DNA of 64,000 nucleotides from Acidimicrobiales bacterium (lineage in GTDB: Bacteria; Actinomycetota; Acidimicrobiia; Acidimicrobiales; CATQHL01): contig OZ220687.1 of NCBI GenBank assembly GCA_965116465.1, positions 1,604,596-1,668,595 of the forward strand, in the 5' to 3' direction. Shown in pieces: positions 41,815 through 51,125 of the stretch (position 1 is the first letter of the stretch; every line of letters begins with the position of its first letter). The position numbers were made by a program, and so were the translations under genes. Under the pieces are notes generated by a model. That model was given only the letters and a program-made list of their open reading frames with translations, did no database searches and had not been told where the DNA came from.

Positions 41815-42636
41815 ATGACCGAAGTACCCGAGTATCTGCTCGAGCGGTCGCGTCAGCGACGCTTGGAGTTGACCGGCGAGGGCGGAACGGCCGAAGGTTC
41901 CCCCGCCGAGGGTGCCGCAACCGCGACGCCGGCCACCACCGGCGGCGGCGCGCCTGCGGCGGCGGCTCCGGCGCGCTCACCGTTGCCGGCGGTGCCACCG
42001 GCGGCGCCACCCCCGCCTCCGGCGCCGCCCAAGCCCTGGGTGCAGGCCGCGCTCGGGCGCAACAAGATCCCCTACTGGGTGATGCCGGTGCTGCTGTTCC
42101 TGCCCATCTGGGTCTTCATGTACGTCGGGACCCTGGAGGATCCCACCCGGGCCGCAACCGGCATCGTGGCCGACGGGGCCGGGATATACGCGCAGGAGTG
42201 CGCTACCTGCCACGTCGCCTCGGGTGCAGGGGGTGGCACCGGGCCCCGGCTGAACGACGGCGAAGTCCTGCTGACGTTCCCCGACGACGCCGAGAACCTG
42301 GGGCTGGCCCAGCATGTCACCTGGGTGGCCATCGCCACCGACGGTACGGGAGAGGGCAACCCGTACGGCTCGTCCGAGCGAGGCCGGGTGGCCGGCTGGT
42401 TCGCCAACATGCCCGGCCACTACGACGAGCTGACCGGCACGGAGATCCTGGCGGTGGTGCTCTACGAGCGGATCACCCACGGCGAGAGCGACGTGGCCGC
42501 CACCCTGGCGCCGCTCGTCGACGAGCTGCTGGCCGCCGGAACCCTGGAACTTCCCGAGCACTTCGACGAGAACGTGACCCCCGCCGACGTGGCGGGGCTC
42601 CTGGCACCTCTCCTGGCAGCCGGCGACGGAGCCTGA
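41815..42636 (+). CDS. Membrane-anchored monohaem c-type cytochrome
   Basis: 273 aa with one CXXCH (CATCH), one central TM helix (IPYWVMPVLLFLPIWVFMYV), and an N-terminal TEVPEYLLERSR motif. Confidence 0.8.
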   Translation: MTEVPEYLLERSRQRRLELTGEGGTAEGSPAEGAATATPATTGGGAPAAAAPARSPLPAVPPAAPPPPPAPPKPWVQAALGRNKIPYWVMPVLLFLPIWVFMYVGTLEDPTRAATGIVADGAGIYAQECATCHVASGAGGGTGPRLNDGEVLLTFPDDAENLGLAQHVTWVAIATDGTGEGNPYGSSERGRVAGWFANMPGHYDELTGTEILAVVLYERITHGESDVAATLAPLVDELLAAGTLELPEHFDENVTPADVAGLLAPLLAAGDGA

Positions 42637-43883
42637 CGATCGCCCACCGCCACGATCTGGTCGTCGTCGGCGGTGGACCAGCCGGCGCGGCCACCGCCTA
42701 CTGGGCGGCACTGCAGGGGCTGGACGTGCTCGTGCTGGAACGCAAGCAGTTCCCGCGCGACAAGACCTGCGGTGACGGCCTGACCCCCCGGGCGGTGAAG
42801 CAGCTCGCCGACATGGGTCTCGGCGGCGAGATGGAGTCGTACCACCGCTTCGGCGGCCTGCGCGCCGTCGCCCACGGCCACACCCGGGAGCTCCCCTGGC
42901 CCGAGCACCCGATCTTTCCCCGCTACGGCTACGTGGTGCGGCGCAGCACGCTGGACGCCGCGGTGCTGGATCACGCCCGCAAGGCCGGGGCGCTGGTGTG
43001 GCACGGGGCCGAGGCCACAGAGCCGCTGCTGGCCGGCAGCCTCTGCCGGGGGGTGCGCGTCGTGGATCGCACCTCCGGTGAGCAGAGCGACGTGGAGACC
43101 TCGTACCTGGTGGTCGCCGACGGGGCGAACTCCCGGGTCGGACGAGGGCTGGGCTGCCGCCGCGAGCGCACCTGGCCCCAGGGAATGGCGATCCGCACCT
43201 ACTTCGAGAGCCCCAACGGTGACGATCCCTGGATCGAGAGCGCCCTGGACGTGCGCGACCGCAACGGCGCCACCCTGCCCGGCTACGGCTGGATCTTCCC
43301 CCTCGGGGACGGGACCGTGAACGTGGGCATCGGCCTGCTCACCTCCTACCGGGACTGGCGGAGCGTGAACACCAGCCACCTCATGGAGGAGTGGGCCTAC
43401 GCCGCACCCGAGCGCTGGGGTCTCGACCCGACGGCGCCGCTGGCGCCCCCGGTGGGGGGCCGCCTGCCGATGGCCGGCTCGGTGAACCCCAAGGCGGGTC
43501 CCAACTTCCTGGTGGTGGGCGACGCGGCGGGCTCGGTGAACCCGTTCAACGGCGAGGGGATCGATTACGCCTACGAGACGGGCCGCCTCGCCGCCGAACT
43601 GGTGGCCGAGGCGGTGATCTGCGACGACGGCCTGGCCCTGTCCCGCTACCCCGAACTGCTGGAGAGCACCTACGGGGCCTACTACAAGGTGGCCCGGCTC
43701 TTCGCCTACGCCATCGGCCGGCCCCGCCTCATCAGCCGCCTCGTGCAGTTCGGGATGCAGTCCCAGACCCTCATGGAGCTGGCGCTGCGGATCATGGCCA
43801 ACCTCATGCACGAGGACGACCCCGGCGCAGCCGAGTACATCTACAAGACCGCCGCCAAAGCCGCCTGGCTCTGGCCCGACTGA
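42633..43883 (+). CDS. Geranylgeranyl reductase-family FAD-dependent oxidoreductase (candidate isoprenoid-quinone side-chain reductase)
   Basis: Conserved sequence begins at DLVVVGGGPAGAATA (the FAD fold), with GDAAGSVNPFNGEGI further on. No ATG/GTG/TTG is available between the upstream overlap and the FAD motif. A CTG at 42633 forms a CTGA overlap with the cytochrome c stop. The start is uncertain. Confidence 0.8.
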   Translation: MTIAHRHDLVVVGGGPAGAATAYWAALQGLDVLVLERKQFPRDKTCGDGLTPRAVKQLADMGLGGEMESYHRFGGLRAVAHGHTRELPWPEHPIFPRYGYVVRRSTLDAAVLDHARKAGALVWHGAEATEPLLAGSLCRGVRVVDRTSGEQSDVETSYLVVADGANSRVGRGLGCRRERTWPQGMAIRTYFESPNGDDPWIESALDVRDRNGATLPGYGWIFPLGDGTVNVGIGLLTSYRDWRSVNTSHLMEEWAYAAPERWGLDPTAPLAPPVGGRLPMAGSVNPKAGPNFLVVGDAAGSVNPFNGEGIDYAYETGRLAAELVAEAVICDDGLALSRYPELLESTYGAYYKVARLFAYAIGRPRLISRLVQFGMQSQTLMELALRIMANLMHEDDPGAAEYIYKTAAKAAWLWPD

Positions 43884-44227
43884 GGGCCGGATGCGCCCGG
43901 ACGCAACGGCGGCGCTGTTCGTGCAGCCGAGATGGCTTTCGGCGAAGATCGCCTCGATGCGCTCGTTTCCGATGGCGCGGACCGCAGCGGCGCGTCGAAG
44001 TTGGGTGACTGGCATACCTCTGAGGCACATACGGCGCGCTATTGGGCGCAAACCTCGAAATGATATCTCAGCATCTATCCGAACAGATGTTGTGGCTGTC
44101 ACAGGGGTCCACTAGAGTAGGGGTACCGGTCACTGGCCCTTGCTTCGGCGGGGTCGGTGTTCCCCGACCGGCTTGTCGGTTCGGCCGACCTGAGCCCGTT
44201 CTGGATGTTGCCTTCGGGGGACGACCG

Positions 44228-45496
44228 ATGACCGATCTGGACCTCTCCACTGCCGAGTCCCGCACCGATCTGGCCGGTCGGGTTCTGGCGTCGTTCGATG
44301 CGTCGCTGGCGGGGCTGCGGGCGATGGACGGGGAGTGCTTGGAGGAACGGCTGCGGCTCGTGGGGCGTTGCGAGTCCCGGCTGGCTGCGGTGAAGGCGGA
44401 GACGATTGACGCCCTTGCCCGCCGGGATGGCGAGGCCCGTGCGGCGGACGTACTGCGCAACGATGTAAAGCAGTCCCGAGGGTCGGCCAAGCGGCAGGTG
44501 AAGGAGGCCGGACGGCTGGCGCAGGTGCCGAAGGTGGCTCGGGCTCTGGCCGAGGGGGCGATCACGCCGCAGCACGCCCGGTTGATCGCCGAGGCTGCCG
44601 AGCAGGCGCCTCCGGGGGCGCCGATCGATGAGGCCGAGTTGCTCACAGCGGCCACCGGGCAGCCTGCCGACCTGTTCGGCGCGACGGTGCGTGACCATCT
44701 CAACAAGCGCAGCGGCGACGACTTGAAGGAGCGCCGCAAGCGTCAGCGCGCCCAGCGCCGGCTCAGCTTCAAGCGCCAGCCCGACGGCATGTTCGAGTTG
44801 TTCGGCCGGTTCGATCCCCTCACCGGCAGCCGCATCGAGACGGCGATCACCGCCGCGGCGAACAAGCTCTGGCGTGACGAGGACCCCAAGAACCGCGCCA
44901 CCCCCCAGCAGCGTCTCGCGGACGCTCTCGAATCGCTCGTCACCCACGGCGACAAGGCCAAAGGAGCCGCCCAAGGCGTCGACCTGCTCGTCATGGTCGA
45001 CTACGACGTCCTCGCCGCTCAACTCGCCAATCCCCGCCTGGTTGACGGCACCCCGCTGTCGGCGCAGGAACTACTCCGCCTAGCCTGCGACGCCAACATC
45101 CTCCCGGCCATCTTCGAACAGAAGAGCCGGCCGCTGTGGCTGGGCCGCGGCAAACGACACGCCACCAAGCACCAGCGTTCAGTGCTCGCCGCCCGGGACA
45201 AGGGCTGCATCGGCTGCGCCACCTCGCCCAACTGGTGCCAAGCCCACCACGTCTGGCACTGGGAACACGGCGGCCCAACCGACATCGACAACATGTGCCT
45301 GCTCTGCAGCCACTGCCACAGCCTGGTCCACACCAACGCCGCCGACATCATCCAAGAGCCCGACGGTGGCTTCACGCTTCACCATCGGCGTCGCAGCCGA
45401 GGACCGTCGCCGGCTGGCAACGGCACCCACTATGCATCCATGTCCAACCTGCCAACAGGCAACGGCGCGGACGTCGCCCTCCCCCTTCGCTGCTGA
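44228..45496 (+). CDS. DUF222-type HNH endonuclease (13E12-repeat-like family)
   Basis: ATG at 44228 gives 422 aa with a C-terminal HNH motif (CQAHHVWHWEHGGPTDIDNMCLLCSHCHSLVH) and a long helical N-terminal domain typical of actinobacterial DUF222 proteins. Confidence 0.8.
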   Translation: MTDLDLSTAESRTDLAGRVLASFDASLAGLRAMDGECLEERLRLVGRCESRLAAVKAETIDALARRDGEARAADVLRNDVKQSRGSAKRQVKEAGRLAQVPKVARALAEGAITPQHARLIAEAAEQAPPGAPIDEAELLTAATGQPADLFGATVRDHLNKRSGDDLKERRKRQRAQRRLSFKRQPDGMFELFGRFDPLTGSRIETAITAAANKLWRDEDPKNRATPQQRLADALESLVTHGDKAKGAAQGVDLLVMVDYDVLAAQLANPRLVDGTPLSAQELLRLACDANILPAIFEQKSRPLWLGRGKRHATKHQRSVLAARDKGCIGCATSPNWCQAHHVWHWEHGGPTDIDNMCLLCSHCHSLVHTNAADIIQEPDGGFTLHHRRRSRGPSPAGNGTHYASMSNLPTGNGADVALPLRC

Positions 45497-45640
45497 AGGT
45501 CACGACCTCCAGCGGATGACCGGCCTCGCCCGGCCGAGCGAACATTCGCCGAAGTAGGGCACGCCAGGGATAGGGGCGGATCGACTGCGGGCAGAGCCGG
45601 ACGCCCAACCAGCGGTCCACGCCCGGCGCACGACGAGTGA

Positions 45641-47539
<1,899 letters not shown>

Positions 47540-47602
47540 GCGGCCGCAGGGCCCCGCTCGCCATCGCTGAACAAGCCGAACCACTCGACCGACGAGGTGC
47601 CT

Positions 47603-48829
47603 ATGGGAAAGTTCGCGATCGGCCTTCTCGGCCTGTTCCGGAGGATCTTGCTGCTCGTCCGGAGGCTTCGAGGCCACACGCCCGATGACGTGGCCGACCG
47701 CCGCGTCGTCAGCGGCCAGTCCTGGAACGAGTTCTGTGATGCGCTGAAGGCGGCCGGGGCCGCTCTGAGTTTTCCCGACACCCCGCGGGATCCGTTCAAT
47801 CAAGCCGAGGGATACCGCTACCTGAGCCGTCTCGCCCGTGCCGGGCTGATGGCGTTCGTCGAGCACGCCGACCCCGCAGCGCCGGTGCTGCATCGCGTCG
47901 TCGACGAGACCACCAAGATGGGCGCGGACAATCCCGACAACTTCTACCTGACAGCCGCGCTGGACGGCGGCTACGACTACAGGATCACCGGGCGTCGCAA
48001 CACGATCGCCTACTTGAGCTTCGGGACCCAGTCCGGCCACTACGGTCAGGGTGGTGGCCTTCCCCCGACCGGGTACATCGAGTCCGATGAGATCGAGATG
48101 GACACCGACGGCTGCTTCGAGCTGGTGGTGAGTTCCAACCCCAGCGACGGCAACTGGCTCCCGATGACGCCGGAGACCGGGGCCCTGGTGGTCCGCCAGA
48201 CCTTCGGTGACCGCGACGCGGAAACTCCGGCGGAGCTGACCATCGAGCGCATCAACTGCGCCGACGAGGGACGCCACGCCTCCCACCTCACGGCGCGAGC
48301 CCTCGACGAGGGGCTGCGGAAGGCCGGGGCGCTGGTGGCCGGCGCGCCGCTCCTGTTCGCCAAGTGGGCGCGTGACTTCCAGAAGCACAGCAACGAGCTG
48401 CCGATGTTCGACCCGCAGGTGTCACGGGCCGCCGGCGGCGATCCGAACATCACCTACTACCACAGCCACTGGGCGATCGGCCCCGACGAGGCCCTGCTGA
48501 TAGAGGTCACACCGCCGGAATGCGAGCACTGGAACTTCCAGTTGAACAACTACTGGATGGAGTCGCTGGACTACCGCCACTTCAGGATCCACACCAACAA
48601 GCACCTCGCCCACTACGCCACCGACGGCTCGGTGCGTCTGATCGTGGCGCACCGGGATCCCGGCCTCCCCAACTGGATCGAGACCGCGGGCCACACCTCG
48701 GGCACCATGTGTTTCCGGTGGGTGCGGGCGAAGGAGCACCCGCAACCCCGGACCCGGCTCGTCAAGCTGGACAGCCTTCCGGAGGCGGCGGCGCGGGAGA
48801 TCGGCCCCGCAGTCGGGGGTAGCGCGTGA
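47603..48829 (+). CDS. Conserved hypothetical protein (DUF1214-like by recollection)
   Basis: ATG at 47603 is preceded by GACGAGG plus 5 nt. The stop overlaps the sulfotransferase start (GTGA). The family call comes from the remembered pattern EGYRYL...ADNPDNFY and is unverified. Confidence 0.6.
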   Translation: MGKFAIGLLGLFRRILLLVRRLRGHTPDDVADRRVVSGQSWNEFCDALKAAGAALSFPDTPRDPFNQAEGYRYLSRLARAGLMAFVEHADPAAPVLHRVVDETTKMGADNPDNFYLTAALDGGYDYRITGRRNTIAYLSFGTQSGHYGQGGGLPPTGYIESDEIEMDTDGCFELVVSSNPSDGNWLPMTPETGALVVRQTFGDRDAETPAELTIERINCADEGRHASHLTARALDEGLRKAGALVAGAPLLFAKWARDFQKHSNELPMFDPQVSRAAGGDPNITYYHSHWAIGPDEALLIEVTPPECEHWNFQLNNYWMESLDYRHFRIHTNKHLAHYATDGSVRLIVAHRDPGLPNWIETAGHTSGTMCFRWVRAKEHPQPRTRLVKLDSLPEAAAREIGPAVGGSA

Positions 48830-50067
48830 CGTCGACGGACTACGCGAACCCGTATCGCCCCCTGGCGATCAGGTTGTTCAACCGGATCGGCAGGGCCGGG
48901 CGGAGCCTCGAGGGGCCCGGTCGGCTGGATGTCGATTCAATCGTCGACTCGGCGCGCCGCAAGACCGGGTTGACGGACTTCGGGGCGGACGGACACCTCC
49001 GTGCCCTGGGCGTGCTCGTCGAGTCGATCAACGCCGAGGCCCGGTTGACAGCCACCGGGCGGCTGATGCAGAAGTCGCGACTCTCCGGCGCGCTGGTCAA
49101 CCGGCTGCAGATCCAGGAACTGCTGAGGCGGCATCCGGAGATCGATGACATCTACCTCGGCGGGATCGTTCTGGTCGCCGGTCTGCAGCGCACCGGCACC
49201 ACGCTGCTGCAGCGCCTGCTGAGCTCCCATCCGGAGATTCGAAGCATCACAGGACCCGAAGTACTGCACCCGGTGCCCGATGTCGATGATGTCGAACGCG
49301 GCGAGAGAGCCCGTGCGAGGCGGGCGGTCCTGGCCAAGCGGGCGTTCTCCTATCTGGCACCGGAGTTCACGGTGATCCATCCGATCGACCACGACCAGCC
49401 GGAGGAGGAGGTCCTGCTGATGGATCTGACCTTCATGAGCCAGTCGGGTGAGGCCACCATGCACGTGCCGAGCTACTCGCGCTGGCTCGAGGGTGAGGAT
49501 CACACGTGGACCTACGAGTACTTCAAGCGGGTCCTGAAGGTGCTCTGCTGGCAGCGTCCCGGCCGGACCTGGGTGCTCAAGACGCCGCAGCACATGGAGC
49601 ACCTCGACGCATTCAGGACCGTGTTCCCCGAGGCCACGATCGTGCAGACCCATCGCGATCCGCGGAAGACGGTCGCCTCGTTCTGCAGTTTGGTGGCACA
49701 TGCCCGCGGCATGTTCAGTGACAGCGTCGACCCGCTGGAGATCGGCGAGCACTGGTTCCGCAAGACGCAACGGATGGTTCAACGGTCGGCACAGGTCCGG
49801 GAGGACGCGGGCGACCGCCGATTCATCGACGTCTCGTACTACGACCTGACCAGAGATCCGATCGCCGAACTCCGGCGGATCTGCAACGAGGCGGGGATCG
49901 CCTTCGACGACGTCGCCGAGCTCACGGCCAAACGCTGCATCGAGGCGAATCCGAAGGACCGCTTCGGCAAGCACGTCTACCGGCTGAGTGACTTCGGATT
50001 GAGCGAGCAGATGGTGGACGAGGCCTTCTCCTCGTACCGGGAGAAGCATGCGATCCCGATCGAATAG
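48826..50067 (+). CDS. PAPS-dependent sulfotransferase (Sulfotransfer_3 / Stf-like)
   Basis: 413 aa with a 5'-PSB-like loop GLQRTGTTLLQRLL and a 3'-PB-like motif THRDPRKTVASF. Confidence 0.8.
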   Translation: MTSTDYANPYRPLAIRLFNRIGRAGRSLEGPGRLDVDSIVDSARRKTGLTDFGADGHLRALGVLVESINAEARLTATGRLMQKSRLSGALVNRLQIQELLRRHPEIDDIYLGGIVLVAGLQRTGTTLLQRLLSSHPEIRSITGPEVLHPVPDVDDVERGERARARRAVLAKRAFSYLAPEFTVIHPIDHDQPEEEVLLMDLTFMSQSGEATMHVPSYSRWLEGEDHTWTYEYFKRVLKVLCWQRPGRTWVLKTPQHMEHLDAFRTVFPEATIVQTHRDPRKTVASFCSLVAHARGMFSDSVDPLEIGEHWFRKTQRMVQRSAQVREDAGDRRFIDVSYYDLTRDPIAELRRICNEAGIAFDDVAELTAKRCIEANPKDRFGKHVYRLSDFGLSEQMVDEAFSSYREKHAIPIE

Positions 50068-50117
50068 GCCCGCAGGCGTCTGCTGAGTAGGGGCTCGCAC
50101 CGGGGGTACCGATCACC

Positions 50118-51125
50118 ATGGCACCAGAATCCCCGAAGGCCCGGCGCGGCAACGTGGTCGACGCCATGATCAAGGCGATCCGCGACCTGAGGGATCTCAA
50201 GAACCCGGAACTCGGCCCGCTCCGCGATGACGAGCGGATCGACGGCAGGACCTGCCTGATCACGGGGGCCAACAGCGGACTGGGTCGGGCTGCGGCGATC
50301 GAACTGGCGAGGCGCGGCGGGAACATGATCCTGGCCTGCCGGCCGGGTCATGCCGGGATCTCCGACGAGATCGGGCGACTCTCCGGATCCGACGCCGTGG
50401 ACTTGATCGACGTGGATCTCTCCGATCTGCGCTCCGTACATCGCTTCTGCGACGAGCTGCAGCGACGGGGCACCCGCATCGACATCGCGCTCCTGAACGC
50501 CGGCTGCATGTCGCGCCGGTCACAGCGGACGCCGCAGGGATACGAGATCATGTTCACGGTCCACTTCCTGGCGAATCGGGTGATGATCGACCGCTGGCTG
50601 GCCGACGGTGTCGTCAACCCGTCGAGCCGGCCCGGCGAGACGCCGCGGATCGTCTTCGTGTCATCGGACTCGCACCGGTCCGCTCCGCCCATCGATTTCG
50701 ATCGCCTGGGTTCCTGCCCGGAGTACGGCATGTCTCAGAGCATGCGGCACTACGCCGGGAGCAAGCTGGTCCTGTGCACCTTCGCCACGGAACTCTCCCG
50801 CCGGTTGAACCCCGGCGAGGGCGTCGGCGTGGCCGTGCACGCGCTGTGCCCGGGAGGGGTCGCCACCAACATCGTCAAGGACGCGCCGAGGCTGCTGAAG
50901 CCGGTCCTGAACGCCTGGTTGCGGCGGTTCTTCCAGAAGCCGGAGGAGGCGATCGGACCGATCCTCCACCTCTGCTGCGCGCCGGAGGCGGGTAACTCCA
51001 CCGGGACGTACCTGCACATGATGCACAGGCGGCAGGTCTCGCCCGATGCGGCGGACCCGGACAACGGCGCCCGGTTGTGGGAAGCCAGCGAGCCCATGGT
51101 GGCGAGTTCCCGGCAAGCCCACTGA
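50118..51125 (+). CDS. Short-chain dehydrogenase/reductase family oxidoreductase
   Basis: 335 aa with the cofactor motif TGANSGLG and the catalytic motif YAGSK. Confidence 0.8.
   Translation: MAPESPKARRGNVVDAMIKAIRDLRDLKNPELGPLRDDERIDGRTCLITGANSGLGRAAAIELARRGGNMILACRPGHAGISDEIGRLSGSDAVDLIDVDLSDLRSVHRFCDELQRRGTRIDIALLNAGCMSRRSQRTPQGYEIMFTVHFLANRVMIDRWLADGVVNPSSRPGETPRIVFVSSDSHRSAPPIDFDRLGSCPEYGMSQSMRHYAGSKLVLCTFATELSRRLNPGEGVGVAVHALCPGGVATNIVKDAPRLLKPVLNAWLRRFFQKPEEAIGPILHLCCAPEAGNSTGTYLHMMHRRQVSPDAADPDNGARLWEASEPMVASSRQAH

Follow-up and report, generated by a model that had tools for sequence, protein, structure and literature searches.

A cassette of PAPS synthase, DUF1214-like protein, sulfotransferase and short-chain dehydrogenase genes in an Acidimicrobiales bacterium is a candidate lipid-sulfation operon

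Introduction

Stf1 is one of the four sulfotransferases that were named in Mycobacterium tuberculosis in the early 2000s. Its gene (Rv3529c) lies side by side with Rv3530c and Rv3531c, which encode a short-chain dehydrogenase/reductase (SDR) and a DUF1214-like protein, respectively. A KstR motif/operator is located upstream of Rv3531c (PMC1995591) and this gene is listed among those predicted to be required for growth on cholesterol (PMC6429209). The structure 2ZQ5 is that of STF1 from M. tuberculosis H37Rv, according to the reference list of a 2026 paper which states that the substrate of the enzyme is unknown (PMC13449962). Here, we analyse a cassette that joins the same three protein families to a gene for the synthesis of 3'-phosphoadenosine 5'-phosphosulfate (PAPS). 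It is carried by a 64,000-nucleotide stretch (hereafter the window) of the genome of an uncultured, sponge-type Acidimicrobiales bacterium (GCA_965116465.1, contig OZ220687.1, positions 1,604,596 to 1,668,595 of the forward strand).

Two other described systems are close enough to be compared with this cassette. The characterised Sulfotransfer_3 enzymes use steroids (BtSULT) or hydroxy fatty acids (ErSULT, whose structure is the closest to that of STF1) as sulfate acceptors (PMC13449962). The BtSULT (BT0416) cluster of Bacteroides thetaiotaomicron, a species in which our control search also found matches to the Sulfotransfer_3 Pfam family, resembles the window cassette in having a Sulfotransfer_3 enzyme fed by PAPS-synthesis genes, and BtSULT sulfates a lipid alcohol, the 3-hydroxyl of sterols (PMC13449962). 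However, its PAPS comes from CysD, CysN and CysC, whereas the window cassette uses a Sat-CysC fusion, and the paper mentions no DUF1214-like or SDR partner (PMC13449962). In the Stf3/Cyp128 pathway of M. tuberculosis, which leads to sulfomenaquinone (S881), a Stf-family enzyme acts on an isoprenoid quinone and a P450 hydroxylase is needed.

Our literature search found no paper that joins DUF1214 with a sulfotransferase or that describes the triad of DUF1214-like protein, sulfotransferase and SDR. The cassette had been noticed in a first reading of the window made from its letters only (the sequence-only reading), which proposed that it sulfates an isoprenoid, a lipid or a quinone.

A putative self-sufficient sulfation operon

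The cassette consists of sat-cysC, a DUF1214-like gene, a sulfotransferase gene and an SDR gene, arranged head to tail in this order on the + strand (Table 1). These four genes probably form one self-sufficient cytoplasmic sulfation operon that yields a stable sulfated lipid alcohol. In the mechanism that we propose, Sat-CysC would convert sulfate and ATP to PAPS, with which the Stf1-type sulfotransferase would sulfate a small hydrophobic molecule at a hydroxyl group. The SDR may interconvert ketone and alcohol at or near the sulfated position. The DUF1214-like protein, which would be membrane-tethered in this clade and a near-obligatory partner of the sulfotransferase, could deliver or tailor the acceptor or act on the sulfate ester. 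At the end of this pathway we would most likely expect a stable sulfated alcohol of lipid nature, for which a polycyclic triterpenoid (sterol or hopanoid) is one possibility.

The triad, in which the DUF1214-like and SDR genes are adjacent to the sulfotransferase gene and co-oriented with it, occupies positions 47597-51125 of the window. The genes are closely packed, since only 57 nucleotides (nt) separate sat-cysC from the DUF1214-like gene and 50 nt separate the sulfotransferase gene from the SDR gene. The stop of the DUF1214-like gene and the start of the sulfotransferase gene overlap by 4 nt (GTGA, 48826-48829), an overlap by which the sulfotransferase is predicted to be translationally coupled to the DUF1214-like gene. 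The open reading frame (ORF) of sat-cysC is open from a TTG at 45683, and the ATG at 45779 was taken as its probable start because relatives align from that residue. No signal peptide-like start was found among the cassette proteins, save the anchor helix of the DUF1214-like protein, and the promoter and terminator scan gave no signal exceeding chance. Pfam and NCBIfam matches confirm the gene placements and identities of the sequence-only reading, and the motifs that it quoted (GLQRTGTTLL, RDPRKTVAS, TGANSGLG and YAGSK) are all found in the translations; the nucleotide sequence likewise shows the GTGA overlap. The arrangement is far beyond chance because the identical gene order recurs in dozens of unrelated contigs.

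Table 1. Genes of the cassette, its neighbours and related loci elsewhere in the genome (C1, positions in the source genome; L, fetched loci; scores in bits with cut-offs in brackets; aa, amino acids)
Feature	Position	Strand	Evidence or remark
sat-cysC, bifunctional sulfate adenylyltransferase / APS (adenosine 5'-phosphosulfate) kinase	45779..47539	+	NF004040 817 bits (669)
DUF1214-like gene, 410 aa	47597 (GTG) or 47603 (ATG)..48829	+	PF06742 28.5 bits (25), 6ANS family
PAPS-dependent sulfotransferase, Sulfotransfer_3 / mycobacterial Stf1-Stf9 type	48826..50067	+	PF13469 166 bits (27)
Classical SDR, 335 aa, PRK06197-like	50118..51125	+	adh_short 63 bits; PRK06197 128 bits, under its 268-bit cut-off
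DUF222/HNH gene, neighbour outside the cassette	44228 (alternative start 44042)..45496	+	DUF222 94 bits, HNH 27 bits
Geranylgeranyl-reductase-family flavoprotein (MenJ-like), neighbour	~42633..43883	+	TIGR02032 237 bits (159)
Monohaem cytochrome c	41815-42636		Upstream of the cassette
Second sulfotransferase/DUF1214-like pair with ERG4/ERG24	G000:C1:493261-496970 (L183 5259-8974)		Outside the window
Hopanoid-type cluster: squalene/phytoene synthase, polyprenyl synthase, squalene-hopene cyclase, radical-SAM/DUF3463 (HpnH-like)	C1:1162708-1170528 (L190 8708-16528)		Outside the window

PAPS supply

The Sat-CysC protein contains PUA_2, ATP-sulfurylase and APS_kinase domains and scores well above the cut-off of the NF004040 equivalog model. 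The source genome is a single contig of 3.53 Mb that is 94.5% complete. Whole-genome family searches indicate that sat-cysC encodes its sole ATP sulfurylase and its sole APS kinase. The same searches found no match to the NIR_SIR sulfite reductase family and a single PAPS_reduct-family match of 36 bits, which fits no CysH or CysD model and matches uncharacterised PP-loop proteins only. Hence, neither of the two components of assimilatory sulfate reduction, CysH and sulfite reductase, was found in this genome, nor was CysD, and sulfation is the only visible use of PAPS in it. In addition, four inositol-monophosphatase/CysQ-family genes are present in the genome, and their products could clear the by-product 3'-phosphoadenosine 5'-phosphate (PAP). 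The sequence-only reading had assigned sat-cysC to metabolite sulfation rather than to assimilation and had considered that the gene might instead serve an assimilatory route with cysH/cysDN elsewhere; the assignment holds, given the sole copy of the gene and the lack of such genes in the genome. As regards annotation, a sat-cysC gene should not be counted as sulfate assimilation before the reductive genes have been checked.

The sulfotransferase and its mycobacterial relatives

The best solved relatives of the window sulfotransferase are PDB 2Z6V (E 1e-52), which we take to be M. avium Stf9, and 2ZQ5 (E 7e-51). The 5'-phosphosulfate-binding loop reads GLQRTGTT in the window enzyme, GLVRTGTT in 2ZQ5 and GMPRTGTT in 2Z6V. 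Similarly, the catalytic histidine motif K-x-P-x-H is KTPQH in the window, versus KNPSH and KMPSH in 2ZQ5 and 2Z6V, and the 3'-phosphate-binding loop is HRDPRKTVAS, versus HRPVETIMAS and HRDPYKATGS. From these intact PAPS loops and the catalytic histidine, we infer that the window enzyme is likely to transfer sulfate.

The tree of sulfotransferases, which was built without Stf2, Stf3 and BtSULT sequences, places the window enzyme in a cross-phylum clade of 19 rows (support 100). This clade includes the versions labelled Chloroflexi, Gammaproteobacteria, Bryobacterales and Poriferisocius and is nested in a triad clade of 60 rows. 2ZQ5 groups with its mycobacterial orthologs in a clade of their own (support 100), and Stf9 and the second sulfotransferase of this genome lie in the other half of the tree. 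Therefore, the window enzyme is a paralog and not an ortholog of Stf1. The sequence-only reading had called for such a phylogenetic placement: the relatives are indeed of Stf1/Stf9 type and the best match is to a lipid-type and not to a protein sulfotransferase, but the enzyme stands apart from the Stf1 clade itself.

Beyond the sulfotransferase, the whole triad has a mycobacterial counterpart. In a Mycobacterium locus (L180), genes for an FAA-hydrolase (hsaE-like), an acetaldehyde dehydrogenase (hsaG-like), a DmpG-type aldolase (hsaF-like) and a PPE protein precede a triad (L180 8720-11770) that encodes, in this order, a DUF1214-like protein of 375 aa, an SDR and a sulfotransferase with 89% identity to 2ZQ5. 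Judging from gene families and order, we conclude that this would be the Rv3536c-Rv3529c arrangement. The window triad shares its three families with Rv3531c-Rv3530c-Rv3529c, with 29% identity for the DUF1214-like proteins and 34% for the sulfotransferases, which fall in separate clades. The gene orders differ (DUF1214-like, SDR, sulfotransferase in Mycobacterium; DUF1214-like, sulfotransferase, SDR in the window), as do the SDR subfamilies. Moreover, the mycobacterial operon has no adjacent PAPS synthase gene and lies among steroid-ring degradation genes, whereas the window cassette is located between respiratory and haem genes and neither in a steroid-catabolism cluster nor in a KstR-regulon location. 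The best explanation is that the window triad is paralogous to that of M. tuberculosis. As a side observation, one Mycobacterium genome (G479; L180 and L181) carries two copies of the stf1-type triad, which are separated by about 16 kb spanning the record start, and both sulfotransferases are about 89% identical to 2ZQ5.

A triad conserved across phyla

The conserved core of the cassette is the triad, which is distributed more widely than the genus. At E <=0.001, homologs of the DUF1214-like protein fall into 3807 representative clusters. The nearest 120 are 77-92% identical to the window protein and include proteins from metagenome-assembled genomes (MAGs) labelled Chloroflexi, Gammaproteobacteria and Bryobacterales. 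In contigs carrying these labels, and in others labelled Poriferisocius, the three genes follow the same order in differing genomic settings. For instance, one triad is accompanied by genes for an ankyrin protein, an esterase and a Baeyer-Villiger-type monooxygenase, another by those for a TonB-dependent receptor, a second SDR, an SRPBCC protein and a SulP transporter, and another by luciferase-like monooxygenases and CoA-transferases. The Bryobacterales triad is found with a sulfatase, ERG4/ERG24, a KshA-like Rieske protein and DUF1295. The phylum labels of the MAGs are given as deposited, and the flanking TonB-dependent receptor supports at least a Gram-negative assignment. SDR orthologs that are 65-71% identical come after the sulfotransferase in the contigs of other phyla. 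The same order is also seen with more distant DUF1214-like homologs (38-53% identical) in a Rubrivivax-like proteobacterium (Pseudomonadota), in a marine contig and in SAR86.

A profile search (narrow alignment) of metagenomes gave 80 loci, 65 of which leave room to see the downstream gene. The sulfotransferase gene starts at most 340 nt downstream of the DUF1214-like gene in 59 of these 65 loci and within 1.6 kb in four more. The SDR gene follows the sulfotransferase gene in 49 loci and precedes the DUF1214-like gene in 10-12. Recurrent neighbours of the triad were counted among 87 non-redundant groups by clustering all six-frame ORFs. They are a divergent second SDR (15-17 groups), further SDRs (10 and 7 groups), an SRPBCC/Polyketide_cyc2 lipid-binding protein (13-14 groups) and cysC or sat-cysC (13 groups). 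Within Actinomycetota, the DUF1214-like family was found in 31 of the 401 sampled genomes, and in one genus with genomes of 5-6.5 Mb nearly every copy adjoins a sulfotransferase copy.

The G+C content of the module follows that of the host contig, from 36% to 69%, so that the transfers are not recent. Across phyla, as in the contigs labelled Chloroflexi, Gammaproteobacteria and Acidobacteria, the DUF1214-like protein is 76-83% identical versus 63-67% for the sulfotransferase. The pairwise distances of the two proteins are correlated (r = 0.86, a value reached by none of 999 permutations), as expected if they are inherited together. The close homologs of the window genes are labelled Acidimicrobiia or Acidimicrobiales MAGs, and more distant orthologs bear the names Candidatus Poriferisocius and Candidatus Poriferisodalis, both placed in Acidimicrobiales by the taxonomy; Poriferisodalaceae and Aldehydirespiratoraceae have been described as lineages of sponge symbionts (PMC11706023). 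The best explanation of these data is that the triad is an old module that spread horizontally among sponge-associated bacteria of several phyla and to which this genus added a private PAPS synthase.

Conservation and relocation within the genus

Of the 17 other genomes of the genus, 14 encode a sulfotransferase ortholog (72-95% identity); the search found none in the sister genus (three genomes) nor in 40 further families of the same order. All four cassette genes are kept in the same order in 12 of these 14 congeners, with a syntenic sat-cysC that is 85-95% identical. Most of the 12 have hemL on one flank and, where the fetched stretch reaches, the MenJ-like reductase gene on the other. In four congeners, however, the whole block is located at another site, with neither hemL nor the reductase gene within 8 kb. 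The remaining two congeners (L051 in G217 and L056 in G215) have sat-cysC directly beside an intact sulfotransferase gene; the DUF1214-like and SDR genes have been lost, and no DUF1214-like gene was found anywhere in either genome. Hence, the four genes move together as a block, and the DUF1214-like and SDR genes are lost together. The synteny that the sequence-only reading had singled out for checking is therefore real.

The DUF1214-like protein

The match of this protein to PF06742 is marginal (Table 1), whereas its match to PDB 6ANS, an uncharacterised protein of Burkholderia cenocepacia, covers the full length (E 9e-120). The AlphaFold model (pLDDT 88) superimposes on 6ANS with a template-modelling (TM) score of 0.84-0.94 and about 51% identity in the structural alignment. 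Both sequence and fold thus place the protein in the DUF1214/6ANS family. The fold is also shared with the DUF1254/DUF1214 structures of Vibrio (3U07, 3VB9 and 2P3Y), to which the match is looser than to 6ANS. The fold search of the model gave meaningful matches only to structures of unknown function; matches to Cry toxin, SIDT and cupin folds had TM scores below 0.2 and were discarded.

The invariant polar residues of the family include R74, R78, R81, E89, K107, D111, D114, R200, N318, E322 and R374, a set more suggestive of an active site or of anion binding than of a passive scaffold. Furthermore, only the proteins of the sponge-type clade carry an N-terminal hydrophobic/amphipathic helix (residues 3-24) that is lacking in 6ANS-type proteins and in most homologs. 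This helix is predicted to hold the protein at the membrane.

Natural fusions of the DUF1214-like protein with the sulfotransferase were looked for, and none was found in the cases examined. Five sulfotransferase frames of 736-789 aa are open upstream extensions and were rejected as fusions; only one of them (L185) has an adjacent DUF1214-like match in the same frame, with a stop in between. A 793-aa homolog of the DUF1214-like protein (P0249) has no sulfotransferase part. A fusion of another kind is seen in P0355 (539 aa), in which a DUF1214-like protein is joined to a C-terminal SnoaL / limonene-epoxide-hydrolase-like domain.

Several side observations concern the same family. The homolog P0378 joins a DUF1214-like protein to a DUF1254 segment. 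The closest representative at the 50% clustering level is P0241 (KAJ9473238.1, with 55% identity). Its annotation names a eukaryote, Diplonema papillatum, as the source, and it could be a bacterial gene transfer or a contamination. In several genomes from two families of Actinomycetota (f83 and f85), the DUF1214-like matches each contain one in-frame TGA. For three metagenome loci (L110, L121 and L137), the TGA is found 5-14 residues short of the match end, and there it is probably the true stop, read through by the alignment.

A stable sulfate ester or a leaving group

The reading that we prefer, a stable sulfated lipid alcohol, has to be weighed against the possibility that the sulfate is a temporary leaving group. 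The SDR would then make a secondary alcohol, the sulfotransferase would activate it and the DUF1214-like protein would expel or displace the sulfate, with elimination to an alkene, inversion or ring closure as the outcome and no accumulation of a sulfated product. Such a cycle would amount to the PAPS-driven removal or moving of an unreactive hydroxyl during the breakdown or remodelling of a steroid-like lipid. We consider this unlikely, even though several observations are in its favour. The DUF1214-like protein is the most conserved member of the triad across phyla, its gene is almost never found apart from a sulfotransferase gene, and its invariant set rich in Arg/Lys and Asp/Glu resembles an active site that would accommodate an anion. 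Catabolic genes surround many triads, as hsaEGF does in Mycobacterium, Rv3531c is on the list of genes predicted to be needed for growth on cholesterol (PMC6429209), and one homolog is the fusion with a SnoaL / limonene-epoxide-hydrolase-like domain described above. Sulfation followed by elimination has a precedent in the CurM/OLS-type sulfotransferases, of which PDB 4GOX is a weak match to the window enzyme. Aziridine formation is another precedent for sulfate as a leaving group. On the other side, that a genome lacking sulfate assimilation should keep its own PAPS synthase suggests a large flux towards a product. We recognise neither a catalytic fold nor a metal site in the DUF1214-like protein, and the chemistry of the cycle is inferred throughout. 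Above all, the stable sulfated lipid is favoured over the leaving group because two congeners retain only sat-cysC and an intact sulfotransferase gene, without the DUF1214-like and SDR genes, which suggests that the ester itself is useful.

The stable-product reading has its own difficulties. Distant triads, the mycobacterial ones included, carry a different and shorter SDR subfamily, so the role of the SDR may not be conserved, and the fold search of the DUF1214-like protein points to no known function. The many triads found amid genes for Baeyer-Villiger monooxygenase, esterase, CoA-transferases, Rieske oxygenases and hsaEGF are in neighbourhoods that fit a degradative role at least as well as a stable product. 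At 94.5% completeness, the absence of cysH and sir is strong and not absolute. Finally, as detailed below, the genes that hint at a triterpenoid acceptor are found near very few triads, and the most suggestive of these associations in this genome is shared with a single close relative.

Other acceptors and other roles of sat-cysC appear still less probable. In our estimate, the acceptor is very unlikely to be a protein or a carbohydrate (for example, a glycan of the cell envelope or a host-like glycosaminoglycan mimic). Sponge symbionts live in a matrix of sulfated glycans, and the window enzyme does match tyrosyl-protein sulfotransferase and the Nod-factor sulfotransferase NoeE. However, these weak matches cover the P-loop that binds PAPS only (E ~0.003 for the former, or 23 bits), and no gene for glycosyltransferase, polysaccharide export or secretion recurs beside the triad, where the recurrent genes are SDRs and SRPBCC. 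The cassette proteins also have no signal peptide-like starts except the anchor helix. Even less credible is the sulfation of menaquinone, or of another polyprenyl compound processed by the MenJ-like reductase, after the manner of the Stf3/Cyp128 pathway. The reductase gene lies 1.9 kb upstream on the same strand with only a mobile-type HNH gene in between, it directly abuts sat-cysC in one relative (L045) where the HNH gene is missing, and MenJ is the best NCBIfam match of its product. Nevertheless, the MenJ equivalog score is 336 bits, below half of the cut-off of 700, and only part of one genus shows the adjacency: in relatives, the reductase gene remains linked to the block of cytochrome c and cytochrome b6 genes, and the cassette may sit elsewhere, as it does in four congeners. 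None of the ~87 non-redundant triad loci from outside the genus has such a reductase nearby, and the triad is present in SAR86 and other Proteobacteria. No P450 (Cyp128-like) was found among the Pfam-scanned ORFs of the window (35.6-54.7 kb), and the sulfotransferase clade is separate even from Stf1 in the tree, which was built without Stf3.

The synteny of 14 congeners and of about 90 other loci thus led us to reject the quinone link, and we judge the reductase to be incidental to the cassette and not part of the unit. In contrast to the sulfomenaquinone pathway, in which a sulfotransferase would be expected with a P450 and/or a menaquinone reductase, the window shows no conserved linkage of this kind. 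The sequence-only reading had tied the MenJ-like reductase to the cassette, and this part of it has to be abandoned; the isoprenoid or lipid class that it proposed is a reasonable candidate, and the quinone that it added is not supported. The least credible explanation of all is that sat-cysC merely activates sulfate for assimilation and adjoins unrelated genes. It is the only sulfate-activating gene of the genome, as this would require, but no sulfite reductase, CysH or CysD was found, sat-cysC moves with the triad when the cassette changes site, and stand-alone cysC adjoins the triad in unrelated metagenome contigs. On the strength of the whole-genome searches for reductive genes, an assimilatory role was rejected.

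Nature of the acceptor

Our best guess is that the acceptor is a hydrophobic, possibly polycyclic, alcohol. It is probably hydrophobic, given the known substrates of the family and the recurrent SRPBCC and SDR neighbours. Several loci hint more precisely at a triterpenoid. The homologous Mycobacterium triad follows hsaE-hsaG-hsaF-PPE, the Bryobacterales ortholog lies beside ERG4/ERG24, a KshA-like Rieske gene, DUF1295 and a sulfatase, and a KshA-type Rieske gene is found beside the SAR86 triad. In addition, the window genome encodes a second pair of sulfotransferase (421 aa) and DUF1214-like protein (376 aa, 29% identical to that of the window) directly after an ERG4/ERG24 gene and without an SDR. 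With this genome included, 15 of 18 genomes of the genus (14 of 17 without it) carry ERG4/ERG24 genes, often in 2-4 copies, versus two of the 201 sampled genomes of the class. Nevertheless, their adjacency to the second pair is seen only in this genome and in one close relative (G204), and KshA-like, ERG4/ERG24, DUF1295 or hsaEFG neighbours are found in only two of the ~87 non-redundant triad groups. A steroid context as a general rule was therefore rejected, and these neighbours are kept as a hint only.

Apart from these loci, the genome carries a hopanoid-type cluster (Table 1). It also encodes a second cyclase-domain gene (C1:652403-653377), a KshA-like Rieske gene (C1:1790903-1791907) and a DUF1295 gene (C1:2708964-2709770).

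The triad is of wider interest in several respects. Stf1-type enzymes are almost always paired with a highly conserved DUF1214-like protein and an SDR. The module is found in harmless bacteria from numerous phyla, in some versions with its own PAPS supply, and these systems should be tractable when the acceptor and the function of the DUF1214-like protein are sought. That protein might be a new kind of enzyme acting on a sulfate ester (eliminating, displacing or inverting it), and hence part of an undescribed PAPS-driven removal or relocation of hydroxyls on sterol-, hopanoid- or other lipid-type molecules. We hold this for a tentative and rather improbable proposal; if true, it would also account for the stf1 operon in the cholesterol regulon of M. 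tuberculosis. Finally, sponges are known for sulfated sterols whose makers are unclear. A near-identical module across symbiont phyla, in an organism without sulfate assimilation but with a PAPS factory, points to a symbiont-made sulfated lipid.

Neighbouring genes

The cassette is flanked upstream by a Rieske/cytochrome b6 operon in addition to the monohaem cytochrome c gene, and downstream by hemL, hemB and hemD on the opposite strand. The DUF222/HNH gene is variably present between the reductase gene and sat-cysC in relatives. It belongs to a repeated family, with about 20 tblastn copies in the genome that are 30-85% identical. Another of these copies (C1:490496-491569) lies about 3 kb upstream of the second sulfotransferase/DUF1214-like locus.

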